Assembly: GCA_050253415.1 (NCBI GenBank)
Contig: JBFWJC010000001.1
Span: 1,000,679 to 1,064,678 of the forward strand
DNA: 64,000 nt
Source: Pedobacter sp.
GTDB taxonomy: Bacteria > Desulfobacterota > Desulfuromonadia > Desulfuromonadales > Syntrophotaleaceae
Direction: 5' to 3'
Program-made: the position numbers and the translations under genes
Notes under the pieces: generated by a model
The model's database searches: none
Seen by the model: only the letters and a program-made list of their open reading frames with translations
Told to the model about the DNA's origin: nothing
Part shown: positions 11,743 to 55,514 of the stretch, piece after piece
How positions within the stretch are numbered: position 1 is the first letter of the stretch
Layout of the letters: the number at the start of each line of letters is the position of its first letter

Positions 11743-12702
11743 GTGCCAACCTTTTTTACAGGTCCTGAAAGGCCCCCTGCCGTGGACAGCTTGATAGACC
11801 GCTTCTGCCATCATCTCGAAGTCGAGCGCAACCTGTCGCCGCATACCTTGCGTGCCTACCGCCAGGATCTGACCGAATTCGCACGATTTCTCAGCAACGA
11901 TGCAGACACGAAAGGGGGGGCGCCACACACGGTTTCCCTTCGTCAGGTTGATACCCTTGTGTTGCGTCGTTATCTGGCCCGTTTGCACAAGACCAACCGC
12001 AGGACCAGCATCGGTCGTAAACTTTCAGCCGTGCGCAGCTTTTTCCGCTATTTTGTCCGCCAGGGGGAACTGGAGGTCAATCCTGCCGAAACGATCTCTA
12101 CACCGAAACGGGAACATTATCTGCCCAAGGTATTGACCGTGGACGAGGTGTTCGACCTGATCAAGGCCGCCGATGGCGGCGAGCCGTTGACGGTACGCGA
12201 TCGGGCTATCCTGGAGCTGTTCTACTCCAGCGGACTGCGGGTAGGGGAGCTGGCGGGGCTCGATGTCGGTCATCTCGATCTGCGCGAGGGGCTGGTCAGG
12301 GTCAGGGGCAAGGGTGACAAAGAGCGTATCGTGCCCATGGGCCGGCCGGCCCGGCAGGCGCTCGGACGGTATCTGACCGAGCGCGGTGCTCCCGATCGCG
12401 TTCAACCCCTGTTTCTCAATTATCGCGGCGGGCGCCTGTCTGCCCGCAGCATCGAGCGCAATCTCAAAAAATGGTTGCTGCGCGCCGGGATCCTTAAGGA
12501 CGCCTCGCCCCACGCCTTGCGGCATTCCTTCGCTACCCATCTGCTCGATGGCGGCGCTGACCTGCGCGCCATTCAGGAACTGCTCGGTCATGCCTCCTTA
12601 TCCACTACCCAGAAATATACCCAGGTCAGCCTCGATCGGTTGATGGATGTTTATGATCGCGCCCATCCGCGAGGGCGCAAAAAAGATCGTAACGAGGAAT
12701 AA
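11743..12702 (+). CDS. xerC: tyrosine recombinase XerC (start may be GTG 11782)
   Basis: RNLSPHTLRAY, RDRAILELFYSSGLRVGEL, GKGDKER, HALRHSFATHLL, LLGHASLSTTQKYT. Confidence 0.9.
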   Translation: MPTFFTGPERPPAVDSLIDRFCHHLEVERNLSPHTLRAYRQDLTEFARFLSNDADTKGGAPHTVSLRQVDTLVLRRYLARLHKTNRRTSIGRKLSAVRSFFRYFVRQGELEVNPAETISTPKREHYLPKVLTVDEVFDLIKAADGGEPLTVRDRAILELFYSSGLRVGELAGLDVGHLDLREGLVRVRGKGDKERIVPMGRPARQALGRYLTERGAPDRVQPLFLNYRGGRLSARSIERNLKKWLLRAGILKDASPHALRHSFATHLLDGGADLRAIQELLGHASLSTTQKYTQVSLDRLMDVYDRAHPRGRKKDRNEE

Positions 12703-15194: not shown

Positions 15195-15389
15195 GCGGTT
15201 GTCGGGTGCGTTGGGCAGTCCCAGCTGTGCCGCATATTTCGTTCCGGTACGATTCATGACTTATCGCAGCCCTCGTACAATGAGCTTGAACCCTTGGATT
15301 GAACAGTTAGACTATTTAATAATAGTGTGAGCATGCGATCTGTGATGCTTTCCGGCCTATCTACCGGTCGCGAATCCAGGAGGGCTAAC

Positions 15390-18143
15390 ATGCAGGAATT
15401 ATACTGGAAAGTCGATAGTCCCCTGGCCCGGCTGGCGGAACTGACCAGCTTTGCAGGAGATCTCTGGGAAAGACCGTTGCGGCGCGACGTACGCTCATTG
15501 GGTAAATTGCTCGGTACGGTGATCCGGGAGCAGGCAGGTATTCCGATCTACGAGCTGGAAGAAGAGCTGCGTCATGGTTCCATCTCCCATCGTCGTCTTC
15601 TTTACCATGCCAAGCCCCAGGACGAGGTCTGGCGCGACGACCAGCAACTGCAGGCCGCGGTCGGTCTGATCCGTGAGCTTTCCCTGGCCGATGCCGGTCA
15701 AATCGTTAAGGCGTTTTCCACCTTCTTCGAACTGGTCAATCTGGCGGAAACCCAGCATCGCAAAAGACGCTTGCGGGCGGTACGGTTGGCTCCTGAAGCC
15801 ATGGATAAACCAGGCTCCCTGCGCGGCACGCTGGTGCGGTTGCGCGACAAGGGCTTCAAGGCTGAGCAACTTCTCGCCGCATTGCAACACATCGAAGTGA
15901 TTCCGGTATTCACCGCTCATCCGACCGAGGTGGCGCGGCGTGTGACCCGCACCAAGCGGCAACATATTGCCTGGGCCCTGGAACAGCTGAACCGGCCATT
16001 GCTGTTCGAAGCCGAAGCCGCTGCGCATCAGCAGTCGATCCTTTGCGAAATCACCGCCCTGTGGCAGACCGAAGAAATCCGCCGTCATCACCCGACGGTG
16101 GAAAACGAGATCAACATGGGGCTCGATCATTACACGCCTTTTCTGATCCCTGCCCTGGGCGATTTTTATCCCGACCTTGCCGCGGCATTCGACGAAATAT
16201 TCGGGCATCAGCTGGCACCTTGCGATCTGCCAACGGTGGTTCGTTTCGGTTCCTGGATAGGCGGCGACCGCGACGGTAATCCGTCGGTAACCCCTGAATC
16301 GACCCGTATCGCCCTGGACCGCGCTCGTGGAGTCATTCTGGACAGCTACCTGCAGGACGTGGCGTTGCTCAGGGAGGTTCTTACTCCTTCCGGTTGCCGG
16401 GTTCCCACCACTGTGGCATTCCGTCAGGTACTACGCGACTACCGGGAAAACATGCCCGCGGCCGCTGCCCGCATGGCATCCTGCCCGGAATGCGAACTCT
16501 ATCGCCAATTTATGGAGGCGGTCGCGTATCGCCTTGCATGTACCCGCAACACGTTGAAACATGCCGATGCCTATCGGTCCGCGCGGGCGTTCCAGGATGA
16601 TCTGCTGCTGGTGCGTGTCAGCCTTGAGCATCATAGCGCTCATCGCCTGGCGCGACAGTATCTCGATCCGCTGCTGCGCAAGGTGGCAACCTTCGGGTTT
16701 CATCTGCATACCCTTGATATACGCCAGCATGCCCGCATGCACAGCCAGGCCGATGCCGATCAGGCCAACTGTCGCGTCGACAGCGCTGCGGTGTCCACGG
16801 TATTTGATACCTTGCAGAGTGTCGTGGCACTCAAACAGGAATTTGTACCGGAGTCGATCACCCGTTATGTCATCAGCGGTACCAGTTGCGCCGAAGATCT
16901 GCGGTTATGGCTGCGATTGGCCGAAAAATCCGGGGTGCAGGTTGGAGGCGATGCACGTAGTGGCGACCCTGGCCTGATGCCGGTGCCCCTGTTCGAATCG
17001 ATCGAAGATCTGCGTAATGCGCCGGAGATCTGCCGTCAACTTTGGACGGACGTGGGATACCGGCGGCAGCTCGATTCGTGGGGGGGCTGCCAGGAAATCA
17101 TGCTCGGCTACTCCGATTCCAATAAGGACGGCGGCATGTTCACCAGTACCTGGGAGCTGCATAAGGCTCAGCGGGCCTTGCATCAGATGGCAAGGCAGTG
17201 CAACGTCAGTCTGCGGCTGTTCCATGGTCGGGGCGGAACCGTCGGCCGCGGTGGCGGACCAACCCATCGCGCTATCCTGAGCCAACCCGGAGGGGCGTTT
17301 TTCGGTTCTCTCAAGATCACCGAACAGGGCGAGGTCATCAACTGGAAATATGCCGATTCGGAACTTGCGCAGCGCAATCTCGAGTTGATGGTCGCCGCCA
17401 GCCTCGAAAGCCTGCTGTGCCCCGACCTGTGCGATGTTGCAGCTAATCCCACCTGGGAGTCGGCGCTGGAAGAGATGTCCGCCATGGCCTTGGTGTTTTA
17501 TCGCCGGCATATCGCCGACAATCCCGATCTGGTGACCTATTTTGAGCAGGCCACGCCGGTGCTCGAATTCGAATTGGCCAAGATCGGCTCGCGGCCGTCG
17601 CGGCGCAAGTCCGCCGGTGGGCTCGATGACCTGCGTGCCATCCCCTGGGGGTTCGGCTGGATCCAGAGCCGCCACGTGCTGCCCGGCTGGTTTGGCGTCG
17701 GATATGCACTTACCGCCTTCGCGGAAAAGGGACCGGAGGCCAAGCGTCTGTTGTGCGAGATGATGGAACATTACCCGTTTTTTGCTGACCTGATTCGCAA
17801 CGTGGAACTGGCCCTGACCAAGGTTGATCTGCCCATTGCCCGGCGCTATGCCGAACTGGTCACGGATGCGGATCTCCGCGAGCGATTTTTTGACCTCGTG
17901 GTCAGCGAACATCAACGTACCCTGACGGCGGTACTTGATGTTACCGCTCAGACCCGCCTGCTCGAACATGAACCGAGTCTGGCCAGGTCCCTGCGGTTGC
18001 GCACCCCTTATGTCGACCCTTTGAGCCTGATGCAGATCGAACTGCTGCGACGTAAACGCAGCGGCGAGGAAAGCGATGAACTCAACTACCTGCTGGCCGC
18101 CACTATTCACGGTATCGCCGCGGGGTTGCGCAATACGGGGTAG
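15390..18143 (+). CDS. ppc: phosphoenolpyruvate carboxylase
   Basis: VFTAHPTE, SWIGGDRDGNP, QEIMLGYSDSNKDGG, FHGRGGTVGRGG, LRAIPW, C-terminal GLRNTG. Confidence 0.97.
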   Translation: MQELYWKVDSPLARLAELTSFAGDLWERPLRRDVRSLGKLLGTVIREQAGIPIYELEEELRHGSISHRRLLYHAKPQDEVWRDDQQLQAAVGLIRELSLADAGQIVKAFSTFFELVNLAETQHRKRRLRAVRLAPEAMDKPGSLRGTLVRLRDKGFKAEQLLAALQHIEVIPVFTAHPTEVARRVTRTKRQHIAWALEQLNRPLLFEAEAAAHQQSILCEITALWQTEEIRRHHPTVENEINMGLDHYTPFLIPALGDFYPDLAAAFDEIFGHQLAPCDLPTVVRFGSWIGGDRDGNPSVTPESTRIALDRARGVILDSYLQDVALLREVLTPSGCRVPTTVAFRQVLRDYRENMPAAAARMASCPECELYRQFMEAVAYRLACTRNTLKHADAYRSARAFQDDLLLVRVSLEHHSAHRLARQYLDPLLRKVATFGFHLHTLDIRQHARMHSQADADQANCRVDSAAVSTVFDTLQSVVALKQEFVPESITRYVISGTSCAEDLRLWLRLAEKSGVQVGGDARSGDPGLMPVPLFESIEDLRNAPEICRQLWTDVGYRRQLDSWGGCQEIMLGYSDSNKDGGMFTSTWELHKAQRALHQMARQCNVSLRLFHGRGGTVGRGGGPTHRAILSQPGGAFFGSLKITEQGEVINWKYADSELAQRNLELMVAASLESLLCPDLCDVAANPTWESALEEMSAMALVFYRRHIADNPDLVTYFEQATPVLEFELAKIGSRPSRRKSAGGLDDLRAIPWGFGWIQSRHVLPGWFGVGYALTAFAEKGPEAKRLLCEMMEHYPFFADLIRNVELALTKVDLPIARRYAELVTDADLRERFFDLVVSEHQRTLTAVLDVTAQTRLLEHEPSLARSLRLRTPYVDPLSLMQIELLRRKRSGEESDELNYLLAATIHGIAAGLRNTG

Positions 18144-18193: not shown

Positions 18194-19060
18194 TTAATCG
18201 TGCCCGGTCAGGCGATAGTAGGCGTGGGGATGCAACCGTTTGACGATTTTATCCGCCAGCGGCGCAAACCATATCCGCGTCGGAATCCGTACGATGGAAA
18301 GTCCCAGTTCTTCTTTATATTGGCATAAACCTGGCGCCTCTCGGGCGTGAAGGCCATGCACGATCTCACTAATCGATCCTGAGCGGCGGCAGACCTGTAC
18401 CCAATCGAAAAACAATCCGAGGCTGATGTTGGTTTTCAGGTATTGCGAATGCAGAAACAGATCGTCCACATAAGCGGTTGCGCCGACCGCATAGCTGGTC
18501 AGGTAGCCTCCAAGTTTACCGTCCACCATCCCGCCAATGACAAGGGCTTTTTTCGACTCAAAGTATCGCCTTATCTGATCCCGGTATCCGCTGCGCGTGG
18601 GAACTCTGCCGTAACGGTTTCGGGCATGGGCCGAACAGAGGATGTCATACCCCTGGTCAAGAAGCAGACCCGGTTCTTGCAATGCGACAATACGAACCTG
18701 TGTGCGGAGTTTGCGCAGCTTGTTTCGGCAGCGGCCACTGAGGGTTTGCAAGGTGTAGCCGGACACGTCGGTGAGCAGGTGCAGCGGCATGCTGCCATTG
18801 GCCTTGCCGGCATCCGCAGGGTGCAGGGAGGTTCGAAATCCCCAGCATAGTGCATTGGGGCAGGTCGCTTCATCCAGGCTCATTCTGGCCATGTGATGTG
18901 TTGCGACATAGAAACCTGGATACCTTGCCCACCAGTACCGCCCCTTGTGGCGGATAATCTTTTCCCCCCTGAGAATCAGCCAGTCGGCAAGTTCTCTCTC
19001 GGTCATTGAAGCCAGCGATGCTTCCGTCGCATCTTTGAATCCGTGGCTGGAGACATTCAT
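18194..19060 (-). CDS. FemAB/GNAT-fold protein
   Basis: C-terminal half VIGGMVDGKLGGY...AYVDDLF...PGLCQYKEELG resembles the FemABX/GNAT 'GL.xFK..fG' signature; GGAGG RBS. Confidence 0.6.
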   Translation of the reverse strand: MNVSSHGFKDATEASLASMTERELADWLILRGEKIIRHKGRYWWARYPGFYVATHHMARMSLDEATCPNALCWGFRTSLHPADAGKANGSMPLHLLTDVSGYTLQTLSGRCRNKLRKLRTQVRIVALQEPGLLLDQGYDILCSAHARNRYGRVPTRSGYRDQIRRYFESKKALVIGGMVDGKLGGYLTSYAVGATAYVDDLFLHSQYLKTNISLGLFFDWVQVCRRSGSISEIVHGLHAREAPGLCQYKEELGLSIVRIPTRIWFAPLADKIVKRLHPHAYYRLTGHD

Positions 19061-19175: not shown

Positions 19176-19820
19176 TCAGCTATCATGCTGATTAATGGCA
19201 TACAGGGATGTTTCTCCAAAATATCCCAGCCAATTTGCCAGGCCAACGAGTTTAAAACCGTCTTCATACAAGTGGTAATAAGGTATGGTTATCCCCATTA
19301 TGTCGGACATGCCGTCGACAGCGATGGACAGAAAGAAAAAACCTAATGCCAGCGCCAGCGTGATGAAGTTAGTTTTGAGGATGGTTTTCCTGAAGTACAT
19401 CAGGTAAATATAGATCATGGAACCATAGGTCACGAAAATATATCTTTGCCGCCAATGAAAAATTTGGGGGAAGACTCTTTCGTGCAACAGAAACAAATCG
19501 TCCAGCAGGAGCAGACTGGTGATAAGACCGGATATGAGGAAAAACTTCGCCATTTTCCCAGTGTCTTTACTTTTGAAAATAAAAAATGAAAAGAAACATA
19601 TGGCTGCAGTCGCACACCAGAAGAGAATGGCTATGTTTGAGACGACTCCCAAAAAAGGTGAGGAATTGGTAATGTCGGCCGGATCCCTGGTGAACATGGC
19701 AATCGGCGTACCGCTGTGGTTGCTTACCAAAAAAACCGTCAGCAGTAGCAGCCAGCAGGGAATGTACAGGCTTAAGAGTAATTTAACCGATGCTGGCAGT
19801 TTTAACATGGGAAATTTCAT
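19176..19820 (-). CDS. polytopic membrane protein (LDDLFLLHE motif), AT-rich
   Basis: About 6 hydrophobic segments; RDP, DDLFLLHE and EDGFK charged motifs. Confidence 0.75.
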   Translation of the reverse strand: MKFPMLKLPASVKLLLSLYIPCWLLLLTVFLVSNHSGTPIAMFTRDPADITNSSPFLGVVSNIAILFWCATAAICFFSFFIFKSKDTGKMAKFFLISGLITSLLLLDDLFLLHERVFPQIFHWRQRYIFVTYGSMIYIYLMYFRKTILKTNFITLALALGFFFLSIAVDGMSDIMGITIPYYHLYEDGFKLVGLANWLGYFGETSLYAINQHDS

Positions 19821-19983: not shown

Positions 19984-20883
19984 CTAGCTTGGGGAACCCC
20001 CCGGCATCCGCACCGGGAGATAGCGCTCCTCCGCTATTTTCAATTCGTCGACATTCTGCAAGCGGAAGACCTCCTGAACCGGTGTGATCTCTTTTTCCAC
20101 CCCCATCAGCGATTGTTGTTCATGGATCAGGGCCGCGGTCTTTTGCATGGCAGCAATACTCGATCGCAGCAGGTGGTTGGCCCAGATCACTAGACTGATG
20201 CCGGCCTCTTGAAAAACCGGGGTCGGAGTCTGGTAATACTTGGTCGGCACCACTACGACGGGGCAGGTGTCCCCCCATTCATTCATGAAAGCCAGGACTT
20301 CTTCCGCGGTGGATAATTTGCTGTGGATCAGCAAGGCATCCGCTCCCGCCTTATGGTAGGCCTCGGCGCGTTTCAGGGCTTCGCCGAGCCCCCATCCGGC
20401 AATGAAGGCTTCGATTCGCGCGACCACGCAAAAATCGTCGTCCTGCTGGGTGTCCTTGGCCGCCTTGATTTTGCCGGCAAATATGTCGATGGCTTCCAAG
20501 GGCTGGCGGGCATTGTCCAATAACGAGTTATTCTTGGGGAATAGCTTGTCTTCGATGCAGGCCGCCGCGACCCCTCGTTGCTCCAGTTTTCGCACCAGTC
20601 TGCGCATATTATTGAAATTGCCGTAGCCGGTGTCGGCATCGAGCATGATCGGGATGGAGGTGGCGTCGCTCATGAATTCGATGACTTCCAGCACCTGGGT
20701 CCAGCTTGCTTCGTTGCTGTCCCGCACCCCGAGGGCCGCCGAAATGGCCAGGCCGCTGCCCCATATGCCTTTAAAGCCGGTCTCTTCGACAATTCTGGCG
20801 CTCAGACCGTTGTGGGCTTCCATGAGGAACTGCAGATCCGGCGATTGTAACAGGGCTTTGAACTGGGACGTCTTTTTTTGCAT
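19984..20883 (-). CDS. pepM: phosphoenolpyruvate mutase
   Basis: [17 protein letters not shown], diagnostic [10 protein letters not shown] (EDKx5NS), VARIEA, LIHSK, VVVPTKY, IWANH. Confidence 0.95.
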
Positions 20884-20909
20884 GGGAAGCCTCCGGGCGG
20901 TTGGAAGAG

Positions 20910-21875
20910 TCAAAGCGGCTGGTTTATTTTGGGCACATCGTATCCGGCCATTTGTCCCGACCGGGCGAAATTGTCGATGATGTCGATGATTCTGCGGCCG
21001 ATTTTCCGTTGGGAATCGATGGTCATAGCGCCGATGTGCGGGGTGAGAACGACATTGGGCAGGTCGGCCAGAGGGGATATCTTTTTGTCGCCCTCTGCCT
21101 GGTGCACATCGAGGGCTGCACCTCCCAGCCTTTCTTCGCGGAGGGCCTGGCTCAGGGCGACCTCATCCACGATTCCGCCTCGCGCCATGTTGAGGAGATA
21201 GCTGCCGGGTTTCATCAGGGCCAGTTCAGCGGAGCCTATGAGGTTGCTGGTCGTCGACTTCAGTGGGACGCAGGTGCAGAGGTAATCGGCGGTCGACAAA
21301 ACCGTGTGAAAATCGGTGAGGTGCATGCCCTTTTTCTTGAAATCAGCGGCGCGTTCCTCCGAGGGATGTTCGACGCAGCCCAGAACCTGCATGCCCCAGG
21401 CCAGTCCCATTTCGCCCAGCAGAGTGCCGATGTTGCCCAGCCCGACGATGCCGAGTCGCTTGTTTTCCAGCAGGTGTCCGGTCAGCTGGTGTTTGGCCCA
21501 CGTTCCTTCGCGCAGCAACCGGTCCGCGACAAGGATCTGGCGGGACAGGGCCAGCATCATGCCGAACGCCAGTTCGGCTACGGCGCGGGCCCCCGGTCCA
21601 GGAATGCGGACCAATTCAAGTTCGTTGGTGCGCAGATATTCCATGTCGATGTTGTCGAGTCCGGAACCGGCCCGGATCAGCAGCTGCAGGCCGGGAGCCT
21701 TGCTCATGAGGTCGGCGGTAATGTTTACTCCGCTTCGGAAAACCAATGCCTCCCGATCCTCTATCAGTGCCGCCAGGGTTTCCTCCCCGGCGCCGATGCC
21801 CGAAACCACATCATGCCGCCGTTGCAGGGTCTGCAGTGCTTCGGAATCGATCTGGCTTGCCAGCAGGATTTTCAT
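20910..21875 (-). CDS. D-2-hydroxyacid dehydrogenase (SerA-like, no ACT domain); candidate phosphonopyruvate reductase
   Basis: [19 protein letters not shown] Rossmann motif, NMARGG (Arg), DVHQAE (Glu), LTPHIG (His); start overlaps ATP-grasp stop (ATGA). Confidence 0.88.
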
Positions 21876-23095
21876 TTTTCCTCCCCGAGTGCCCGGTCCG
21901 GGTCCCTTTTGCGACGTTCGCCCCGGTTGGTGAATAGCAGAGCGGAGCGCACCATGTCTCCCCAGAAGGGGCGCGGATCCGTCCATGAAAATATGGCGAA
22001 GGTCTTTTTGCCACGTACCGATTTCCGCCATTCCCTGAAGGTCAGTTCCCCCTTGCGCCAGTAATAAAAGGCTGAACGGAGGTCCTGCCGGAGATTGATC
22101 CACTTCACCCCTCGGTATTGCTGGACCCGGTTGTCGGGTAACGGCAAGCCGAGGGCGTCGCAGTACATGGTGTAAAGCAGATCGACCCCGCCGGCTTCGG
22201 CAATGGCTGACCGGCCGGTGGGGCGACAGATATTCGGCTCGACAATGAAATAGTCACCCGATCGTTGGTCGCGCTTGATTTCCATGTAAGCCAGTCCGCG
22301 AAAATCGACGCTCTGAAACAGCCGTAGTGTTTCGTTTAGAACAAAATCGTCGCGACATTCCTCGCCGAGGGAACTCTGACCCATTTCCGGGGGCCATTGG
22401 CGGAGTTTCCTGGCCACAAAGGTTGCCAGGGGTTGCGAATCTGTATTGAAATAGGCGTTGCACGAATAAAGATTGGCATCTGGGCCTTCGATCCAGTTCT
22501 GCAGGATGAAGCAGCTCGTGCCGGATTTGTACTGTTCAAACGTGGCGATCAGTTGTTCAGGCGTGGTGATTTTGAAGGCTTTGAATGCGGAGAGTTCATT
22601 CCACGCCGCGGTTCTATAGTGCGGTTTGAGGACGCAGGGAAAGGCGACCTTGTCCGTTGCAGAAATCAGGTCATCACGATTATAGATGAACCAGGTATCG
22701 GGAATGCGGAACCCGAATTTTTGTGCAAAGGCATAGAACTGCAGCTTGTCCATTAGCATTTCCACAACATCCGGTTCCGGTAGGCACAGGTGATACCAGC
22801 GGGATAGTCGTTGCCGGTTTCGCGAAACGAGCAGGACATCGGGGTCGCAGCAAGGATAAAGTACCGCCTTTTGGGACAGCTGTGCGCCGAGCCGCTCCAA
22901 CGCTTCCAACATGTTGTTGGTGGTGATGACCTGGCGGCAGCAGTTGGTGGTGCAGTAAGGGTGATCTTTGTTTTCCGAAAGGGCGATGACGGGCAGCCGG
23001 TGGCGTTTGGAAAGAATCCGGGCCGTTTGAAGGCCCTGCATGAATTCTAGGCCGGTAACGACTGCAAAAGGTCTGGTTTCTGCGGCTGCCTTCAT
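21872..23095 (-). CDS. ATP-grasp carboxylate-amine ligase (D-aspartate ligase-like)
   Basis: MDKLQFY, FPCVLKP, ILQNWIEG, RKLRQWP, YMEIKRDQRSGDYFIVEPN. Confidence 0.85.
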   Translation of the reverse strand: MKAAAETRPFAVVTGLEFMQGLQTARILSKRHRLPVIALSENKDHPYCTTNCCRQVITTNNMLEALERLGAQLSQKAVLYPCCDPDVLLVSRNRQRLSRWYHLCLPEPDVVEMLMDKLQFYAFAQKFGFRIPDTWFIYNRDDLISATDKVAFPCVLKPHYRTAAWNELSAFKAFKITTPEQLIATFEQYKSGTSCFILQNWIEGPDANLYSCNAYFNTDSQPLATFVARKLRQWPPEMGQSSLGEECRDDFVLNETLRLFQSVDFRGLAYMEIKRDQRSGDYFIVEPNICRPTGRSAIAEAGGVDLLYTMYCDALGLPLPDNRVQQYRGVKWINLRQDLRSAFYYWRKGELTFREWRKSVRGKKTFAIFSWTDPRPFWGDMVRSALLFTNRGERRKRDPDRALGEEK

Positions 23096-23360
23096 CGATT
23101 CATTCTTTCGGCAGAGGGGATGATAAACGGTCGGACGGGCGACAAGTTTGTTTCCCATATAGAAAAACCATAACGTCGGATAAATTAAAGTCAAGTTGCA
23201 GGACACGAGTCGGCCCATGGGGGGGCGGAAACACTGTGGACGGGCCCGATGGAGGTAGGCAGCGGAAACGAAGGTCTGTGAAAGATGACCCTCGATTTTA
23301 AACGCACTCTATGGCAGAATCGCCGCCGATTCGTACGCCAACCCAAAAGGATCGCACATC

Positions 23361-24164
23361 ATGGACCATCAATTGCTGGTCATCTTTTTCCTCACCTTCG
23401 TCATCCACATCATTGGCACCCTGGCCTACTCGGTGCGCATCGCCGGCACGCGTACCGGGCGCATCGCCATCTCTTTTTCCCTGTTCAATATTCTGGTGCT
23501 CGTCTCACGCCTGTCCAATTCCTTTCAGGCCCCTTTGCTGGCAAAACGGGTGGAGGAAGATCTCCTGCGTCAAAACCTGTACGGGGTGGAGGGGGATTTT
23601 CGCTGGTTGTTGTTTGCCGCGACCCTGGCGACATTGGCCGGCGCGATGCTGATTCCGACCTTTCAGCGACTTTTCGCCAGAGCCGTGGAGAGTTTTGGCG
23701 CCTCGCGGTCGCTACCGAAAATGCTGCTGCGGGTCATCAGTCCGGCAGGTATGGCTCATCTTTGCAATGCGGTGGTTCTGCCCGCCAGGGAGAATGTCAC
23801 CAGAGCCTGGAAGGGGGAAAGGATGTCGCTGCGCATAGCAATCCTGAATACGGTCGCCATGGGCGTGTGGACCGTAGGTGTGTTTGCTTCCCTTTATGCC
23901 GGGTATCTCCACCCGGACCTTCGCAGCACGGCCAACAGTCTCTCGTCGGTTGTCAACGGGGCGGCGACCATTCTGATGTTCATCATCATCGATCCGTATC
24001 TGTCCATCCTTACCGATGACGTGGCCGGAGGAAGGGCGGGGGAAGCTTACTTTCGGCGATCCATCGTCTGGTTTGTCGGAAGCAGGTTGGCCGGCACCTT
24101 GCTGGCCCAGGCTTTTCTGGTGCCGGCGGCGCATTTCATCGTGTTTGTGGCCGATAAAATTTAA
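23361..24164 (+). CDS. amj: lipid II flippase Amj family (DUF2837)
   Basis: TLAYSVRIAGTRTGRIA, LVSRLSNSFQAPLL, IPTF, SALYA-like ASLYAG, NGAATIL, IDP; all hydrophobic. Confidence 0.85.
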   Translation: MDHQLLVIFFLTFVIHIIGTLAYSVRIAGTRTGRIAISFSLFNILVLVSRLSNSFQAPLLAKRVEEDLLRQNLYGVEGDFRWLLFAATLATLAGAMLIPTFQRLFARAVESFGASRSLPKMLLRVISPAGMAHLCNAVVLPARENVTRAWKGERMSLRIAILNTVAMGVWTVGVFASLYAGYLHPDLRSTANSLSSVVNGAATILMFIIIDPYLSILTDDVAGGRAGEAYFRRSIVWFVGSRLAGTLLAQAFLVPAAHFIVFVADKI

Positions 24165-27376: not shown

Positions 27377-30300
27377 CTATTTGATACCAAAGGTGACGCG
27401 GTGCCCCTCCCCGGGTACTTTGGGCGCTTCGACGCTGATGCGGCTTTCCAGTTCCGGCTGCACGGCGATGAAAGCCTCTCTCAGATGACGGGCCCGTTCC
27501 AGTGCAAGTTGTTCAAGGGCATTGTCGTCCTTGGGATAGTGTTGACGGATGGCCTCCATCATTTCCTGCGGCGGCAATTTCCGGATCATGCCTATGAAGT
27601 TTTTCGGCTTGTCAAAAGGTTGTTCGGCATACACATCAAACAGTAGATCCGCGTATTCATCGGCATCCACCTCGGGGCTGATCTGCAGTTCCTGCGGTTT
27701 GATCCGGTCGCGCTCTTGCCTGGGCAGGTCGGCATGCTTGATCTCTTGCATGCGTCGTAGCGCATAGGCATCCGCCAGCATTGCACGATCTTCCTCATCG
27801 GCCTGGGGGATGAGCACCAGATTGATTTTGGGGCGAGACATCAGCATGTCGGCTACGGTTTCTACCGTCTTGAGATCTTGGTCAGGAAGGCGTCCTTCCC
27901 CCGGATCAAAAGCGATGTATTCGAGCCCTTGTTCTCCGCTCCCCATGATCCCGCCGAGAAACATGAAGGGCGAGGCCACCGCTTTTATAAGCAGATTGGC
28001 GATGACCTTGAACACCAGGCCGCCGACGCTGAAACTCGGGTCGTCCAGATCGCCGCGCACCGGCAGAGTGAGGTTGATGTTGCCGGCGGTATCCTGCAGC
28101 AGGCTTACCCCCAGCTTGACAGGTAAATTGGGGGCATCGGGAGATTTTATCTTGTCCCCCAATTCCAGGCTGTCGAGTCTGATCTTGTGAGTGGAGTCAA
28201 GCTTGCCCCTGTCGATGGAGATCCTGCTGTCGAGAGAGAAGCTTCCCTGCTCCAGCGGATAGGCGATAAAACGCTCGGATATGGGGGAAATCCGCGTCAG
28301 ATCCAGAGTCTTGAGGCTGGCCTGTAATTCGGCGGCGACATCCGCATGCAGGGGGTTCATGGTCCCTTCCCCCTTGATCGGAGCATCATTCAGCTCGCCT
28401 GAGAAAACAATTCTGGATTGTCTTTCCGGGGTGTTACGCAACTCCCCGACGGTAACCTTCAGTTTTTCAAGGCGGTTGGTTACGGCGGGTTTGTAGCGCC
28501 GGTCGCGCATCACCATGGTGCCATTGATGATCTCCACGCCACCGATACGCAGATACGGGGTGGAAGCTGTTTTGTTTTTTTTCACGGTTTGAGAACGAGC
28601 CGCAGGTGGTTTCGTTGTTGTGGTGGGCTGTTTACCGAGCAGCCTTGCCAGGTTGTTGGTTCCGTCGTTGCTCACGATCAGGTTGATATTCGGGCGAGTC
28701 AGTGTCACTTTGCCCGCGCTATAGCGCTGTCGGGCTGTATTGATATCGAGATCCCGAATGCGCAGGGTGCGTATCGCGGCAAACTCTTGTTTGCCGTCGA
28801 GCACCGATAAGGACTCAAGAGAGGCCTGCCCGCGGATCCTCAGCCGGTTTTTAGCGGTGTCTTTCAGGTCGGTCTGCAGCGCCAGGGTCAGGGTACCGGC
28901 GCCAAGCCGCAACGCCGGGTTGACCTGTCCTAACAGGGGGGAAAACGGTTTGAGATTGAGTCTGGTTGTGCGAACGCTCAGGTTCATGGCAAGGGGGGTA
29001 AGGGTCCCCTTGCCGTCGATGCGCAGGGTTCCCCCTTGTTTTTCCTGTCCGCTAAGGTCGATGTTCAGGGGCGGATTGACTGCCGAGTCGTAGCCGGTCA
29101 CACTGCCGCTCAGATTCTGAAAAGTCGCGTTCGAGGTTTCCCTCGGGCCTTCCAGCCTGACGCTTACCTGTCCGTTCGCAAGCTTCAACTCCGCCAGCTG
29201 CGTCTGCCAGGGCTTGCCCGGTTTTGGCGCATCCGTCCCGGTACTTCGGGCCGCTGCGGAAGGACGCAGTTGTAAAAGATCGATGGTCCCCTTGCGGTCG
29301 CGGCGCAGGCGCAGGTTCGGCTGGTCCAGGAGCAGTTGTCGCACCTCCAGGCGATGCGCCGGGACATCGACGGTCAATCCAGCAAGCGCCAGGTTTCCCA
29401 TCTGGAAGAAGACTTTGCCGGTGTCGTTGCGCAGCAATGACAGCTCCTGCAGATGCGCTTCCCCCTGTTTAAAAAAGATCGCCAGCTCCTCTTGATTCTC
29501 AGCTATGTCCAGACGACCGGCGCCGGAGAATACGCCCTTTTGGAGCGTCACCGGAATGCCGCTGTCCGCCATATACGGTTGGAAATCGGCGATGGGCAGG
29601 TCATCGAGGCGCAGTAGGATGTTTCCCTGCAGAGGGCTCGCCAGCAGCTTGCCTTCCAGGGAAAGGTGACCCGCGTCGTTGAGAGTCAGACTTGCCTTCA
29701 GCTCGGCGGGTTCGGTGCCGGGCAGGTCCAGATCGGTAAGGGTCAGAGCGATCTGTTCCGCCCGGGCCTGGAAACCGCTCTTGACTGTCCGGTCACGCCA
29801 CAGAACGCGAGCCTCGCGAAGCGTAAAGAGTTTCAGGTGCAGCGGCAGGTGGGGCTGCTGGTTTGCCGCCTGAGCCGGCTCTTGTTTGGCGGTGGTTTTT
29901 TTTAACCAGGTCTGCCAGTCGATGCGCCCGTCCTCGAGCCGTGCCAGATGGGCTTCCAGACCCTGCATATCCACCTTTTTAAGGGTCAACCCTTCAGGCG
30001 TGTTGAGGGATCCTTCCAGACCCACCGTCAGTCGTGGCAGCCGCAGCGCTTGATCGCCGTTTGGAGCCAGCACCTCGAGTTCGGTCAGGGTCAGTTGACC
30101 GCCAAGCCCCAGACGGATGCCGGTTTCAGGCTGTTGGCGCATGCTGAAGACCAGGTTTGTTTTTAATTGGCCGTTGTTGAGGGTGGCGCTGGTGAAGGGC
30201 TGTACATAGGGTTGAAAGCGTACCAGGTCCAGGTTGTCGAGGCGGATATCGAACTCGGTATGCAGTTGCTCGGCAAAGGGTGCCAATCGACCATCCACCC

Positions 30301-30976
30301 GCAGCAGTCGGTCGTTGATGACCGCTTTCAGGTAAGGGGTGATGGAGCGTTCCCGATGGCGTTTCAGGGTGGAGGTGAAGGGTGCGTAAAATTCCAGCTC
30401 CGCTACCGTATGTTCCGTTTCACGGATATCGTCGCGAAAATGAAGCAAGCCGCCGGAGATCTCCAGGTCGGTGAGCATCACTCCGAACAGGTTCCATTCC
30501 TGCTCCTCAGTAGCGGATTTATCCGGCTGTGGTTGCTGTGTGCCGTCAGGCGAAGCCTCCTGCGGCACCGGTGCCAGGTCGGCCAGGGAGAGGGTGCCAT
30601 CCTTGCGCAGCCGCATCTCGAGGTGCGGACTGGTTAACTTCAGGTCGCTTAAAACCGGCGCCAGGCGGTAGATGCCCGCCGGACTGACGCGCACCTCAAA
30701 GCGCTCCAGGTTGAAGCACTCCTCACCGTCGGGCAGCGGGATGCGCAGATTCTCCGCCGTCAAACGCAGGGTGAAGGGATTGAAACGTACTTTTTCCAGA
30801 GTACAGGTGCTGCCGAGTTTTGCGGAAAGCTGCTGCTCGGTCACATGGCGGATAATCGGCGGCAGGACCAGGCCGGCTGCCACGGCCCACAGGGCGATAA
30901 ATCCTGCTGTCCAGAGAGCGATGCGGCGCATGTTCTGTTTTTGTTTGGGAGTGAATACTGCGAGTCGATTTATCAT
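27377..30976 (-). CDS. DUF748 domain protein (AsmA-like, repeated) with C-terminal OmpA-like region
   Basis: N-terminal TM, VRFNPFTL, repeated beta-rich units, LPVRGDLDDPSFS, LIKAVASPF. Confidence 0.85.
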   Translation of the reverse strand: MINRLAVFTPKQKQNMRRIALWTAGFIALWAVAAGLVLPPIIRHVTEQQLSAKLGSTCTLEKVRFNPFTLRLTAENLRIPLPDGEECFNLERFEVRVSPAGIYRLAPVLSDLKLTSPHLEMRLRKDGTLSLADLAPVPQEASPDGTQQPQPDKSATEEQEWNLFGVMLTDLEISGGLLHFRDDIRETEHTVAELEFYAPFTSTLKRHRERSITPYLKAVINDRLLRVDGRLAPFAEQLHTEFDIRLDNLDLVRFQPYVQPFTSATLNNGQLKTNLVFSMRQQPETGIRLGLGGQLTLTELEVLAPNGDQALRLPRLTVGLEGSLNTPEGLTLKKVDMQGLEAHLARLEDGRIDWQTWLKKTTAKQEPAQAANQQPHLPLHLKLFTLREARVLWRDRTVKSGFQARAEQIALTLTDLDLPGTEPAELKASLTLNDAGHLSLEGKLLASPLQGNILLRLDDLPIADFQPYMADSGIPVTLQKGVFSGAGRLDIAENQEELAIFFKQGEAHLQELSLLRNDTGKVFFQMGNLALAGLTVDVPAHRLEVRQLLLDQPNLRLRRDRKGTIDLLQLRPSAAARSTGTDAPKPGKPWQTQLAELKLANGQVSVRLEGPRETSNATFQNLSGSVTGYDSAVNPPLNIDLSGQEKQGGTLRIDGKGTLTPLAMNLSVRTTRLNLKPFSPLLGQVNPALRLGAGTLTLALQTDLKDTAKNRLRIRGQASLESLSVLDGKQEFAAIRTLRIRDLDINTARQRYSAGKVTLTRPNINLIVSNDGTNNLARLLGKQPTTTTKPPAARSQTVKKNKTASTPYLRIGGVEIINGTMVMRDRRYKPAVTNRLEKLKVTVGELRNTPERQSRIVFSGELNDAPIKGEGTMNPLHADVAAELQASLKTLDLTRISPISERFIAYPLEQGSFSLDSRISIDRGKLDSTHKIRLDSLELGDKIKSPDAPNLPVKLGVSLLQDTAGNINLTLPVRGDLDDPSFSVGGLVFKVIANLLIKAVASPFMFLGGIMGSGEQGLEYIAFDPGEGRLPDQDLKTVETVADMLMSRPKINLVLIPQADEEDRAMLADAYALRRMQEIKHADLPRQERDRIKPQELQISPEVDADEYADLLFDVYAEQPFDKPKNFIGMIRKLPPQEMMEAIRQHYPKDDNALEQLALERARHLREAFIAVQPELESRISVEAPKVPGEGHRVTFGIK

Positions 30977-31327
30977 ATCTTTATCCTTTTGGTGATATCG
31001 CACAGGATAGGTTGGAAACGCAGTTTAAGTCTATCGAAGAGATGTAACAGGGCAATGTTAAAAGGAGTGGAATCGGTAAGTAGAATGGGACCGGCCGGGA
31101 TACACTTAGTGTGACACGGGGTTGGAGATAACGACGAGACCGACGACCATAGTTGGCTGTCCTTATGCAAATGCAGCATTATTTTGCAGGTTCACCAAAA
31201 AAATAAAAAACTAACGCATGTAATAGCGATGTGTTACCCACGGTTGATACGCTTGCGATATATTTCCCGTAAACATCGGCACCCACGTCCTGCGAAAAGG
31301 TGCGAAAACGACACGGAGGTATAGTTA

Positions 31328-47107: not shown

Positions 47108-47800
47108 ATGGCTAAAAAACATATTCTGGTAGTAGAGGACGAAGAGGATATTCTTGCCCTGTTGCATTATAACCTGGTGCGAGAGGGGTTTCGGGTGTCC
47201 CTTGCCGGTACCGGCGAGGAGGGGCTGGAGACTATTGCCGAAGATCCCCCAGATCTGGTGGTACTCGATCTGATGTTGCCCGGTATCGACGGTCTGCAAG
47301 TCTGTCGCGCTCTAAAGGAAAATGCCGATACACGTAATATCGCTGTGGTGATGGTGACCGCCAAGGGGGAGGAGACAGATGTGGTTGCCGGTCTGGAGCT
47401 GGGTGCGGACGATTATGTCACCAAACCATTCAGCCCCAAAATTCTCATTGCGCGGATAAGATCGGTGCTGCGCCGCAGGGAAAGTACCGAGGAACCCGCC
47501 TCCGAACAGGCTGTTGTGCATATCGACGAACTGGTGATCCATCCGGGGCGCAATCAGGTCACCGTCAAAGGGGAGCCTGTGGATCTGACGTTTACCGAAT
47601 TCCGGGTTTTGCACCTTCTGGCCAGCCGGCCGGGGTGGGTTTTTACCCGCTACCAGATTGTCAACGCGGTGCGCGGTGATGATTATTCGGTGACTGATCG
47701 AGCGGTCGATGTGCAGATCGTCGGGTTGCGTAAGAAATTGGGTGCATACGGCCACTATATCGAGACGGTGCGGGGCGTCGGCTACCGATTCAAGGACTGA
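47108..47800 (+). CDS. phoB: OmpR-family response regulator PhoB
   Basis: VVEDE, LDLMLPG, TAKGEE, KPFSP, IETVRGVGY; pst context. Confidence 0.9.
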   Translation: MAKKHILVVEDEEDILALLHYNLVREGFRVSLAGTGEEGLETIAEDPPDLVVLDLMLPGIDGLQVCRALKENADTRNIAVVMVTAKGEETDVVAGLELGADDYVTKPFSPKILIARIRSVLRRRESTEEPASEQAVVHIDELVIHPGRNQVTVKGEPVDLTFTEFRVLHLLASRPGWVFTRYQIVNAVRGDDYSVTDRAVDVQIVGLRKKLGAYGHYIETVRGVGYRFKD

Positions 47801-47802
47801 AC

Positions 47803-49578
47803 ATGCGAAGAAAACCGATCTTTTGGCAGATTTATCCATCTTATTTACTCATTATTCTTCTCGCAATGGTGGCTGCAACCTGGCTTTTCTCCCGGGATTT
47901 GCGCGTCTTTTACCACCGGCAGGTCAAGGCGGATCTCGAGGCGCGAGGTCGACTGTTTGAGGAACAAGCCCGTGGGTTGTTGATCGATGGTGATCGTGTC
48001 GCGCTTGATGCGCTTGCCAAGGATCTGGGTCAGCGTACCTCAACCAGGTTTACCGTGGTGCTGGCTTCCGGCGAGGTGGTTGGTGATTCCCTGGAGGACC
48101 CCCGTCGCATGGAAAACCATGCAGGGCGGCAGGAGATTGCCCTGGCGCTGCGGGATAAAATAGCCGATTCGGTTCATTATAGCCGCACCCTGCAGGAAAC
48201 CATGATGTATGTGGCGGTGCCGATCCATATCGAAGGTCAAGTCGTTGGAGTGGTGCGGGCGGCACGCGCTGTGAATGAGATTCGCTGGGAGTTGACCGGG
48301 GTTTATCGAGGGGTGGTGTTCAGCGGCCTGCTGGTCGCCCTGGCTGCAGGACTGGTCGGATTGTACCTGTCGCGCCGCATGAGCCGGCCGCTGGAGCTGA
48401 TGAAGCGCGGGGCGGAACAATTCGCCCAGGGGCGTTTTGAACACAAATTGCCGGCCGCCGGTTCCCGTGAAATCTGCGCCCTGGCCGGGGCTATGAATGT
48501 CATGGCCGGCCAGCTTGACGAACGCATTCGCACCGTTCTCCGTCAACGCAGCGAGCAGCAGGCGGTGTTGACCAGTATGGTGGAGGGGGTCCTGGCCCTG
48601 GATAACGACGAACGCATTATCCATCTTAATCGGGCCGCGGCCGACCTGTTCCATGTTGTTCCGGAAGTCGTGGAAGGGCGGCGAATTCAAGAGGTGTTGC
48701 GCAAGGCTGATCTGCAGCGGTTCGTGGAGCGGACTCTGGCAAGCAGGTCGCCGGTGGAAGGCGAGGTGGTATTACCCAGTGCTGAAGGCGATCGTTTTCT
48801 GCAGGCCCACGGAACGGTGCTTCAGGATGGCGAAGGCAAGGGGATCGGGGTGCTGATCGTCTTGAACGATGTCACAAGGCTGCATCGACTGGAAAATATC
48901 CGGCGCGATTTTGTCGCCAACGTTTCCCATGAATTGAAGACACCCATCACCGGTATCAAGGGCTCAGTGGAGACTCTTATCGATGGGGCGGTAGAGCGCC
49001 CTGAAGATGCTGCGCGGTTTCTGAAAATTATTGCAAAACAGGCGGATCGACTTAATGCAATTATTGATGATCTGCTTGATCTGTCCCGCATAGAGCAGGG
49101 CGAAACGGAACAGGCCATGGAGCTGATATCGTCTCCGATCAGGCCGGTATTGCAGGCGGCAGTGCATGCCTGCGAAATCAAAGCTCGAGAGAAATCGATA
49201 GAACTGGTGCTGTCGTGTGCCTCCGATATATTCGCTGATATTAATCCTCCGTTGCTGGAGCAGGCCGTTATTAACCTGATCGACAATGCCGTTAAGTACA
49301 GCGATGCCGGCGGTACCGTCTGGATCGAGGGGGGCAGGGACGGGCGACAGACCCGGATTCAGGTGCGGGATCAAGGCTGCGGTATCGATCGGGAGCATCT
49401 GCCGCGCCTGTTTGAACGTTTTTACCGGGTCGACAAGGCGCGCAGTCGGCGTGCCGGCGGCACCGGCCTGGGGTTGTCCATTGTCAAGCATATCGTCAAG
49501 GCCCACCACGGCCGCGTGACGGTCGACAGTGTGCCGGGGCAGGGCAGCACCTTCCGTATTATTTTGTCGGGTGAATGA
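47803..49578 (+). CDS. phoR: sensor kinase PhoR (HAMP-PAS-HisKA-HATPase)
   Basis: DFVANVSHELKTP, NLIDNAVKY, FERFYRVDKARSR, GTGLGL. Confidence 0.92.
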   Translation: MRRKPIFWQIYPSYLLIILLAMVAATWLFSRDLRVFYHRQVKADLEARGRLFEEQARGLLIDGDRVALDALAKDLGQRTSTRFTVVLASGEVVGDSLEDPRRMENHAGRQEIALALRDKIADSVHYSRTLQETMMYVAVPIHIEGQVVGVVRAARAVNEIRWELTGVYRGVVFSGLLVALAAGLVGLYLSRRMSRPLELMKRGAEQFAQGRFEHKLPAAGSREICALAGAMNVMAGQLDERIRTVLRQRSEQQAVLTSMVEGVLALDNDERIIHLNRAAADLFHVVPEVVEGRRIQEVLRKADLQRFVERTLASRSPVEGEVVLPSAEGDRFLQAHGTVLQDGEGKGIGVLIVLNDVTRLHRLENIRRDFVANVSHELKTPITGIKGSVETLIDGAVERPEDAARFLKIIAKQADRLNAIIDDLLDLSRIEQGETEQAMELISSPIRPVLQAAVHACEIKAREKSIELVLSCASDIFADINPPLLEQAVINLIDNAVKYSDAGGTVWIEGGRDGRQTRIQVRDQGCGIDREHLPRLFERFYRVDKARSRRAGGTGLGLSIVKHIVKAHHGRVTVDSVPGQGSTFRIILSGE

Positions 49579-49642
49579 ATCTGCCGATATGCAGAGATTC
49601 CACCTGTTTCAAAAGCAGCATGGCAACGGGGCTTGCAAACTA

Positions 49643-49670
49643 TTCATGCAGGGCTAATATGACGCTAACA
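49643..49670 (+). promoter_or_regulatory. Pho-box-like site upstream of pstS
   Basis: TTCAT-N6-CTAATAT-GACG-CTAACA, 11-bp periodicity. Confidence 0.7.
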
Positions 49671-49764
49671 CTTCAACGCCAAGATAGCCTCCATCACACA
49701 AGGTAATGATCGTTTCCCTAGGACAATGTATGAGAAACCTTATTTTCCGAAAAGGAGAGCAGGA

Positions 49765-50763
49765 ATGAGTGTCGAGGTAATGAAGGGCTGGAAGAAAGCT
49801 GTCCGTGTTATGTTGGCGGCGGTTGTTGCGCTGCCGCTGGTAGCAGCTACCGGGCATGCCGATACCATCAAGGTGGATCCCAAGCTGGGAAGCTATGGCA
49901 AGGTACAAGGCGTGTCGGGTAATCTGAACTCCATCGGTTCCGATACCCTGAATAACCTCATGGCCCTTTGGTCGGAAGGGTTTCGCAAACTCTACCCCAA
50001 CGTCAATTTTCAGATTGAAGGCAAAGGGTCCAGCACCGCACCCCCGGCCTTGATCGAAGGGACGTCCCAGATCGGTCCCATGTCGCGGAAGATGAAGCGT
50101 CAGGAAATCGAAGCCTTCGAGAAAAAACACGGCTTCAAACCGACCATGATCGGCGTGGCCCTCGACTCCCTTGCCGTTTATGTCAACAAGGACAATCCCA
50201 TCGACAGTCTGTCGATGCCCGAAGTCGATGCTATTTTCTCCCAGACCCGCAAGGGTGGCCATTCAGAGATCGTTACCTGGGGACAGGCAGGCCTGACCGG
50301 TTCCTGGGCTCAGCAGCCTATCAGCATTTACGGTCGAAACAGTGCTTCGGGCACTTACGGCTTTTTCAAGGAACATGCTCTGTCCAAGGGTGATTTCAAG
50401 AATACCGTTAAGGAACAACCCGGTTCGGCATCCGTCGTACTTTCGGTGACCGAAGATAAAAACGGCATCGGCTACTCCGGTATCGGCTACAAGACTTCCG
50501 GTGTCAAGGCGATCGCCCTGTCCAAGGACGCCGGCGCTGCCGCTTATACTCCCAATTACGAGAACGTTCTGGAAGGCAAGTACCCGCTGGGTCGTATGCT
50601 CTACCTCTACGTGGTCAAAGCTCCCAATAAGCCACTGCCCAAAAACGTTGAAGAATTCCTGAAGTATGTTCTTTCAAAAGAGGGCCAGGAAATAGTCGTC
50701 AAAGACGGTTATCTGCCCCTGCCGGCAGGAGTCGCAGCCAAGCAGCTTAGCGCCATGAAATAA
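49765..50763 (+). CDS. pstS: phosphate ABC transporter substrate-binding protein
   Basis: Signal peptide, [24 protein letters not shown]. Confidence 0.93.
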
Positions 50764-50812
50764 GCAGTCGCTTCGTGTCGGTATTAAAGGCAGATGTGTA
50801 TTGCATCGGAAA

Positions 50813-50841
50813 AGCCTGCCGGTTCGTGGAACCGGCAGGCT
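50813..50841 (+). terminator. pstS-pstC intercistronic hairpin
   Basis: AGCCTGCCGGTTC-GTG-GAACCGGCAGGCT, no U-tract. Confidence 0.55.
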
Positions 50842-50879
50842 CTGTTGCGTTGTGAACGGATTGCATTGGTAAGGTGTCA

Positions 50880-53108: not shown

Positions 53109-53119
53109 CAGGATTGACT

Positions 53120-54718: not shown

Positions 54719-54731
54719 GTAAGGTGAGGTT

Positions 54732-55514
54732 ATGAGTGAAACACATTCCGTCACGGTGACGGATCCGATAGTACAGGTTAAGGATCTTGGTTTTTATTAC
54801 GGGACGTCTAAGGCCTTGCACAATATCAGCCTGGATTTTCCGCGCAACCAGGTAACAGCTCTGATCGGCCCTTCCGGTTGTGGCAAATCAACCTTGTTGC
54901 GCTGCCTGAATCGTATGAACGATCTGGTGGATGGCGCGCGCGTTGAGGGCAGCATCCTGCTGGATGGGACGGAGATCAATACCCAGGCCATGGATGTCAT
55001 CGAGCTGCGTCGCCGGGTCGGTATGGTATTCCAGAAGTCCAATCCGTTTCCCAAGACCATCTATGAAAATGTCGTCTATGGTCTGCGTATCGCCGGGGTC
55101 AGGGATAAAACCGTGCTGGACGAGACAGTAGAGCGCAGTCTGCGCAATGCGGCATTGTGGGATGAAGTCAAGGACCGGTTGCATCAATCGGCTCTGGGGA
55201 TGTCCGGTGGCCAGATGCAACGCCTGTGTATTGCGCGGGCCATTGCCGTCAACCCGGAAGTGGTTCTGATGGACGAGCCCTGCTCGGCCCTCGATCCCAA
55301 ATCCACAGCCCGGGTCGAGGAACTGATCAGTGAACTGCGTGAGAAATACACCATCATCATCGTCACCCATAATATGCAACAGGCCGCCCGGGTTTCAGAT
55401 TACACGGCGTTTCTGTTTGAAGGGGTGATGGTGGAATTCGGCATCACCGAGGCTCTGTTCGTCAAGCCACGGCATAAGCAGACCGAGGATTACATCACCG
55501 GTCGCTTCGGGTAA
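54732..55514 (+). CDS. pstB: phosphate ABC transporter ATPase
   Basis: [40 protein letters not shown]. Confidence 0.96.

Follow-up and report, generated by a model that had tools for sequence, protein, structure and literature searches.

A block of five genes in a 64,000-nucleotide stretch of the genome of Pedobacter sp., a bacterium placed by GTDB in the Desulfuromonadales (assembly GCA_050253415.1, contig JBFWJC010000001.1, positions 1,000,679 to 1,064,678 of the forward strand; hereafter, the window), probably makes 3-phosphonolactate and ligates it to an acceptor, for which the cell envelope is the most plausible site. All five genes lie on the minus strand and code, from 5' to 3', for a putative ATP-grasp carboxylate-amine ligase (21872..23095; 407 residues), a D-2-hydroxyacid dehydrogenase that resembles 3-phosphoglycerate dehydrogenase (PGDH) without the ACT domain and that we predict to be a phosphonopyruvate reductase (20910..21875; 321 residues), a phosphoenolpyruvate (PEP) mutase, PepM, with no fused domain (19984..20883; 299 residues), a polytopic membrane protein of an uncharacterised family with at least four strongly hydrophobic segments (19176..19820; 214 residues), and a GNAT-like (Acetyltransf_6 / Fem-like) protein with weak family matches (18194..19060; 288 residues). 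The original prediction for this DNA singled out PepM and the reductase as a minimal module, and thereby omitted three genes of what proves to be a conserved five-gene unit. We regard the unit as a five-gene cassette whose members probably act together.

The genes are closely packed. The stop codon of the ATP-grasp gene and the start codon of the reductase gene share an ATGA overlap, and PepM follows the reductase after a gap of 26 nucleotides (20884-20909). Both of these open reading frames (ORFs) begin with ATG behind a purine-rich ribosome-binding site, namely GGAGG 8 nucleotides 5' of PepM and GGGGAGGAAAA 5' of the start of the reductase. The frame of the ATP-grasp gene is open as far as 23218 (448 residues); the database copy, 100% identical, has 407 residues, and alignments with relatives begin near residue 37-50 of the longer frame. 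A promoter-like site lies 5' of the start of the 407-residue form (23167..23194, minus strand; TTGACT-16-TATGGT, 9 of 12 matches), but it is a weak candidate, with two such sites in the region against 3.2 expected from shuffled sequence, and a terminator and promoter scan of the block region gave no clear operon boundaries. The order of all five genes is kept in five of six related genomes (G004, G057, G070, G125 and G014), and four of the genes are present in the remaining one (G090). The membrane protein occurs in the block in all six and the GNAT-like protein in five, while the flanks of the block vary from genome to genome. Across the order the distribution of PepM is patchy (9 of 201 genomes; the genus to which the window belongs accounts for four of these, out of its six other genomes). 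Among the relatives are bacteria with the names Pelobacter sp. and Syntrophotalea carbinolica, which are anaerobes, and these names fit the earlier assumption that the host is anaerobic.

The window PepM is, on its sequence features, a canonical member of its family. It matches PF13714 (E 5e-63) and scores 401 bits against TIGR02320 (cut-off 319.55), with positions 1-283 of the 284 in the profile covered; nothing is fused to it, just as the original prediction of a bare 299-residue enzyme had it. The next family, phosphonopyruvate hydrolase, gives 241 bits, below its cut-off of 374, and the motif EDKx5NS, presumably the active-site signature of PepM enzymes, is present at residue 111. This is the sole PepM above cut-off in the genome, which is 100% complete on 18 contigs, with 4535 bases withheld from the search. 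No phosphonopyruvate decarboxylase (Ppd) was found in that same complete genome (the best match to TIGR03297 is 31 bits against a cut-off of 312.5), so the route here is decarboxylase-independent; within the block, there is no phosphonopyruvate-consuming enzyme besides the reductase. As an observation apart, a lineage of PEP-mutase-like proteins 36-38% identical to the window PepM has EDN in place of EDK (L097:8857-9858, L099, L104:8519-9916 and L251) and has the same reductase and ATP-grasp neighbours.

The reductase matches both 2-Hacid_dh domains (PF02826, E 1e-51; PF00389, E 6e-19). Against the PGDH model TIGR01327 it reaches 240 bits, below the cut-off of 454, and since this match covers positions 1-305 of 525 only, the protein lacks the ACT region. 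Residues R232, E261 and H280 align with the Arg/Glu/His residues of the solved PGDHs 1WWK, 3DDN and 1YGY, which we take to be catalytic. The earlier description of a SerA-like, ACT-less neighbour of PepM with this triad was thus accurate in every particular, but the missing ACT domain is weak proof that the enzyme is not a PGDH: 1WWK, a protein of similar length (307 residues) that aligns with it over its full length (E 3e-61), was deposited as a PGDH of the ACT-less type III. The better reason for doubting a housekeeping SerA comes from a search for other serA genes, a check that the original prediction had itself proposed. Two further PGDH genes stand elsewhere in the genome, both above cut-off and over the full model (637 and 581 bits); the window reductase is consequently not the only serA and is best seen as a third, dedicated paralogue.

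Its gene neighbourhood points the same way. In 80 loci fetched with a reductase profile and scored for a neighbouring PEP-mutase gene, such a gene was present in 8 of 9 loci at 48% identity or above and in none of the 71 at 40% or below, which argues that the adjacency of PepM and reductase is not a matter of chance. The linked loci come from Chloroflexota, Gemmatimonadota, Planctomycetota, Ignavibacteriota and Actinomycetota. Residue His258, in the stretch DVHQAEG, is invariant in a 26-sequence alignment of this PepM-linked clade and is Phe in the three solved PGDHs; it is a candidate specificity residue. In one Pirellulaceae locus (L229:11157-11726 onward), the reductase looks split into a 189-residue ORF and a second tblastn segment, which may reflect a frameshift or an assembly error.

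A route of this kind has precedent. Reduction of phosphonopyruvate to phosphonolactate by the 2-Hacid_dh_C enzyme VlpB is described as an established branch point, and neighbourhoods of the FrbC-like and VlpB-like types together make up a 5.3% minority in the survey data given there (PMC8942020), in keeping with the placement of the window pair on a rarer, reductive branch in the original prediction. The equilibrium of the PepM reaction is stated to favour PEP more than 500-fold, and a 2026 preprint counts 2-hydroxyacid dehydrogenases among the enzymes that drive it forward (PMC12871164). From the family assignments and the gene linkage, we consider conversion of PEP to phosphonopyruvate and on to phosphonolactate by this pair to be very probable.

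What becomes of the phosphonolactate is suggested by the ATP-grasp protein. It has no Pfam match, and its matches elsewhere are weak, both in NCBIfam (E 2e-10 to 1e-8) and in PDB (D-Ala-D-Ala ligase, E 0.0025; cyanophycin synthetase, E 0.005). Its 2681 relatives bear the source names carboxylate-amine ligase or D-aspartate ligase, and some match PF02786. One relative lies in a metagenome-assembled genome of the Desulfuromonadales (L058), in the order Bac_transf, GNAT-like, ComA, ComB, ATP-grasp, DegT, LuxR-type regulator and Polysacc_synt_2. It is 27% identical to the window protein over the full length and has the C-terminal tail in common with it; the kinship of the two is taken from this alignment and from a tree, and the E-value of the hidden Markov model was left aside as circular, the model having contained the L058 sequence.

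A profile headed by the L058 protein was used to fetch 80 loci, whose neighbours were scored, with ATP-grasp types assigned at 40% identity or above. The two types have mutually exclusive neighbours. ComA and/or ComB accompany 27 of the 39 L058-type genes (24 with both), lying immediately 5' of the ATP-grasp gene, and none of the 39 has PepM or the reductase; PepM and/or the reductase accompany 18 of the 26 window-type genes (16 with both), and none of the 26 has ComA or ComB. The remaining 15 loci, below 40% identity, have neither neighbour set. In a quick maximum-likelihood tree of 85 rows, with support given only by the Shimodaira-Hasegawa-like approximate likelihood-ratio test (SH-aLRT) and with 6 of 90 loci left out for coverage below 80% or a stop codon, the 27 PepM-linked rows all fall together in one clade (support 100), as do all 24 ComA/ComB-linked rows in another (99).

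ComA and ComB, identified in these loci by family name, together convert PEP and sulfite to 3-sulfolactate in the first steps of coenzyme M synthesis. Like PepM and the reductase, they are thus a two-enzyme module leading from PEP to a 3-substituted lactate; they differ in forming a C-S rather than a C-P bond and in being unrelated enzymes, and the module does not occur in the window. Because the sister clades of the ligase are tied to two routes from PEP to isosteric lactates, a 3-substituted lactate is the likely substrate of the ligase and, by the same token, phosphonolactate the likely product of the reductase. On this sequence-based comparison, ligation of phosphonolactate to an amine by the ATP-grasp enzyme is somewhat more probable than not.

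The trio of ComA, ComB and ATP-grasp was itself encountered in exopolysaccharide loci of many phyla and of one archaeal metagenome-assembled genome (L176-L217 and L228; examples are L058/L176:2401-5366, L181:5004-8158, L187:3843-8275 and L193:5355-8170). This suggests an undescribed sulfolactyl decoration. A literature search for a connection between phosphosulfolactate genes and ATP-grasp ligases yielded no paper, and to our knowledge neither a phosphonolactyl nor a sulfolactyl conjugate has been described.

The cell envelope is suggested as the destination by the company that the trio of ATP-grasp, reductase and PepM keeps elsewhere. A polysaccharide deacetylase gene adjoins it in 10 of the 18 PepM-linked ATP-grasp loci, and most of the loci with a deacetylase, chiefly from Chloroflexota, have the order deacetylase, reductase, PepM, ATP-grasp. 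In L097, L098 and L100, genes for a flippase, GT2 and GT4 glycosyltransferases, Wzy and a teichoic-type transferase surround the trio; likewise, the ComA/ComB version lies among exosortase, Bac_transf, GT2/GT4, flippase and deacetylase genes. In the Pirellulaceae locus L229, genes for a GT4 enzyme, UDP-glucose dehydrogenase and a second GT4 enzyme are followed directly by those for ATP-grasp, a methyltransferase, the membrane protein, the reductase, PepM and a Fem-like protein. The combination of the trio with a membrane protein and a Fem/GNAT-like protein recurs in three phyla, represented by the window, by L229 and L236, and by L104. A free amine left by a deacetylase or supplied by a sugar aminotransferase would be the obvious acceptor for the ligase.

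Two genes of the block are harder to place. The GNAT-like protein belongs to a small family (94 hits). Among 21 members, PF13480 is matched by four (best E 4.9e-6) and PF00583 by three, while for the 288-residue protein of the window nothing matches at E 0.01 or below. The family profile recognises PaiA-type acetyltransferases (E 0.005) over residues 151-245, and the C-terminal half is GNAT-like. Outside the order, members lie in polysaccharide loci beside Bac_transf, DegT and Polysacc_synt_2 and not beside PepM. That the family might be specific to phosphonates was considered and rejected, PepM being present in only two Pelobacter sp. loci (L038 and L039) of 60.

The membrane protein has no Pfam or NCBIfam match and falls in unnamed clusters only in the protein atlas; Pfam gave nothing useful on 13 relatives, longer forms included. 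Its family is large (3344 representatives at E 0.001 or below), with ten invariant polar or aromatic residues (D46, S61, W68, D107, D108, H113, S165, E186, K190 and W197), among them a DD...H cluster and the pair E186/K190. Members at 48% identity or above are linked to PepM or to other genes of the block, and an ATP-grasp or Fem-like neighbour is present in 6 of the 21 annotated metagenome loci. At one locus (L326:8321-10345), an ORF with an Ldh_2 domain lies about 3 kb from a membrane-protein homologue, after an ATP-grasp-like gene; Ldh_2, the malate/L-lactate dehydrogenase family, presumably includes the sulfolactate dehydrogenase ComC, and this may be another variant that makes a hydroxy acid.

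Putting these lines of evidence together, we suggest the following scheme. PepM, by its family assignment, would convert PEP to phosphonopyruvate, and the reductase, very probably, would reduce this with NAD(P)H to 3-phosphonolactate, thereby pulling the unfavourable PepM reaction forward. The translationally coupled ATP-grasp enzyme would then activate the carboxylate of phosphonolactate and join it to an amine, a step that we hold to be reasonably likely. The GNAT-like and membrane proteins might prepare the acceptor or hold it at the membrane, and the end product may be a phosphonolactyl group on an envelope molecule, for instance on a glycan amino sugar; for this last part, the role of the two proteins included, comparative context brings the likelihood close to an even chance and a little short of it.

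Several observations weigh against this scheme. No gene for a glycosyltransferase, deacetylase, flippase or sugar aminotransferase lies near the block in the window, and the polysaccharide loci of the genome (C7 and C15) own separate ATP-grasp and Fem-like genes. Two ways of tying the block to a glycan locus failed on these grounds: that it serves a neighbouring one was rejected, the window having none, and the idea that the polysaccharide locus of the genome lacks an acylating pair of its own was not borne out. We propose instead that the cassette became detached from polysaccharide loci in this lineage. The two ligase clades are only about 27% identical to one another, and the product of ComA and ComB is (2R)-sulfolactate, from which the product of a D-specific dehydrogenase may differ in configuration. 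The reductase keeps all its PGDH-like features, and 3-phosphoglycerate is a possible substrate from the sequence. Most members of the membrane-protein family (15 of the 21 annotated metagenome loci) lie in unrelated contexts. Finally, the same reductase clade occurs together with Ppd and a transaminase of the 2-aminoethylphosphonate (AEP) type in L098, and the enzyme is therefore not always the sole sink for phosphonopyruvate; the term decarboxylase-independent, applied to the module in the original prediction, holds for this genome but not for the reductase clade in general.

The main alternative is a gene cluster for a small-molecule phosphonate akin to valinophos or the phosphonoalamides: the ATP-grasp enzyme would ligate phosphonolactate to one or more amino acids, the GNAT-like protein would modify or detoxify the product, and the membrane protein would export it. 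We consider this unlikely, although it has a good deal in its favour. The compact block stands on its own, without glycan genes around it; the patchy spread of PepM noted above is typical of accessory clusters; and in L102 the reductase and PepM have a cupin, an AMP-binding enzyme and two Fem-like genes as neighbours but no glycan genes within the 8 kb covered. ATP-grasp ligases are also described as building phosphonopeptides, with VlpF esterifying valine in valinophos (PMC12723261; PMC8942020). Against it, most relatives of the trio and of the GNAT-like family, as well as the ComA/ComB sister clade, lie in polysaccharide loci, and the membrane protein matches no known transporter family.

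The comparison with valinophos of Streptomyces durhamensis is nevertheless instructive. There too, as the cluster is described, PepM (VlpA) is joined by a 2-Hacid_dh_C reductase (VlpB) instead of Ppd, giving phosphonolactate (PMC8942020), and an ATP-grasp enzyme (VlpF) is found in the cluster (PMC12723261); the window reductase and ligase were likened to VlpB and VlpF by family and description, not by sequence. The onward enzymes of the vlpABCDE core have no counterpart among the conserved genes of the block, VlpC, VlpD and VlpE being set apart by description. In contrast to valinophos, the block contains no further oxidoreductase or kinase genes, and its pathway therefore probably ends with phosphonolactate and does not proceed to dihydroxypropylphosphonate. 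It differs, too, in that its ligase family has a sulfolactate-tied sister clade and relatives in polysaccharide loci, and in that its host is an anaerobic bacterium of the Desulfuromonadales. A second parallel is GCF 842 of Paenibacillus larvae, in which PepM is flanked by genes for malate dehydrogenase, fumarase and ATP-grasp enzymes; here phosphonolactate is likewise predicted to form without Ppd, next to ATP-grasp genes, whereas the dehydrogenase is of another family, the next predicted step is dehydration to phosphonoacrylate, and no membrane or GNAT-like partner is mentioned in the account of this cluster (both after PMC8942020). Pelobacter, Syntrophotalea and Desulfuromonas receive no mention in the available part of the supplement of that survey.

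Two further alternatives are much less probable. The cassette might modify a membrane lipid or peptidoglycan precursor: the Fem/GNAT-like protein would place an amino acid on a lipid-linked acceptor, which would then receive a phosphonolactate cap from the ATP-grasp enzyme at the membrane protein. Genes for ATP-grasp, Fem-like and membrane proteins do recur as trios in loci that lack glycan genes (L297, L290 and L278), Fem-type enzymes act on lipid-linked precursors, and a divergent gene for the lipid II flippase Amj (alternate to MurJ) adjoins the block 5' of the ATP-grasp gene (23361-24164, plus strand; PF10997, E 1.5e-95). This gene, however, is next to the block only in the window and in L027/L007 and not in L024, L025, L026, L028 or L029, and we regard the idea as very improbable. 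The notion that the dehydrogenase is an ordinary type III PGDH or other 2-hydroxyacid dehydrogenase, with the PepM product used elsewhere, can draw on 1WWK as its closest solved structure and on its intact triad and PGDH-like motifs, but it is very improbable in view of the two full-length PGDH genes, the linkage of the clade to PepM in at least five phyla, the translational coupling to the ATP-grasp gene, the gap of 26 nucleotides to PepM, and the want of any other consumer of phosphonopyruvate in the block or of Ppd in the genome.

Envelope decoration by phosphonolactate, the reading that we prefer, also has to be set against the well-known route to AEP phosphonoglycans and phosphonolipids, in which PepM, often fused to a cytidylyltransferase, works with Ppd and AEP transaminase. 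The two have in common the PepM start and relatives in cell-surface glycan loci, and the AEP route occurs with the same reductase clade in L098 and L100; they differ in that the window genome has no Ppd and its PepM has no fused nucleotidyltransferase. In those two loci, both from Gemmatimonadota (L098:1866-8921 and L100:744-3492), the reductase is accompanied by Ppd, a class-V aminotransferase and a PepM fused to a cytidylyltransferase, with an ATP-grasp gene in addition in L098; a single glycan locus may thus make two different phosphonates. Seen against all these systems, the reductive route from PepM through a VlpB-type enzyme is already known, and the window pair is a further member of it; what sets the block apart is the lack of onward genes, the sulfolactate-linked sister clade of the ligase, the conserved pair of membrane and GNAT-like proteins, and the detachment from glycan loci.

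Some other genes of the window deserve brief mention. A PEP carboxylase gene (15327-18143, plus strand) is convergent to the block and is kept in L025, L026 and L027; it was set aside as a member of the system, being convergent and absent in L024, L028 and L029, and its adjacency is probably coincidental even though both it and PepM use PEP. A 1208-residue DUF748/AsmA-like protein is encoded at 27377-31003 (minus strand), and its homologue adjoins the ATP-grasp end of the block in L024 and L026. About 25 kb from the block, the genes at 47108-55514 (plus strand) code for a response regulator, a PAS/HAMP histidine kinase, a phosphate-binding-protein-like product, two permeases and an ABC ATPase; the set looks like a Pho/Pst phosphate uptake system, with permease genes that are unusually long (744 and 537 residues). 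A tyrosine recombinase of the phage-integrase family with an N-terminal SAM-like domain (11743-12702, plus strand) lies about 5.5 kb from the block and could be XerC/D-like rather than the integrase of a mobile element.

Phosphonates are a large and poorly mapped pool of biological phosphorus, and most surveys track the decarboxylase route. If our proposal is true, a widespread cassette that ends at phosphonolactate and its ligation adds an undescribed phosphonate conjugate to this pool, here in anaerobic sediment bacteria. The whole block seems to be present in a cultured relative that bears the name Syntrophotalea carbinolica DSM 2380 (L024), which makes the proposal directly testable; moreover, the linkage of one ligase clade to PepM and the reductase and of the other to ComA and ComB gives a testable prediction of substrate for an uncharacterised ATP-grasp family. 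More tentatively, and with the balance of likelihood still against it, one ATP-grasp family might install strongly acidic lactyl groups on the envelope, with a 3-phosphonolactate clade, a 3-sulfolactate sister clade, and phosphonate and sulfonate as interchangeable carriers of surface charge, the five-gene block being a portable version in which the membrane and GNAT-like proteins would define a new, non-polysaccharide acceptor. The linkage of the two ligase clades also suggests that bacteria are able to exchange phosphorus and sulphur within one and the same kind of surface decoration.

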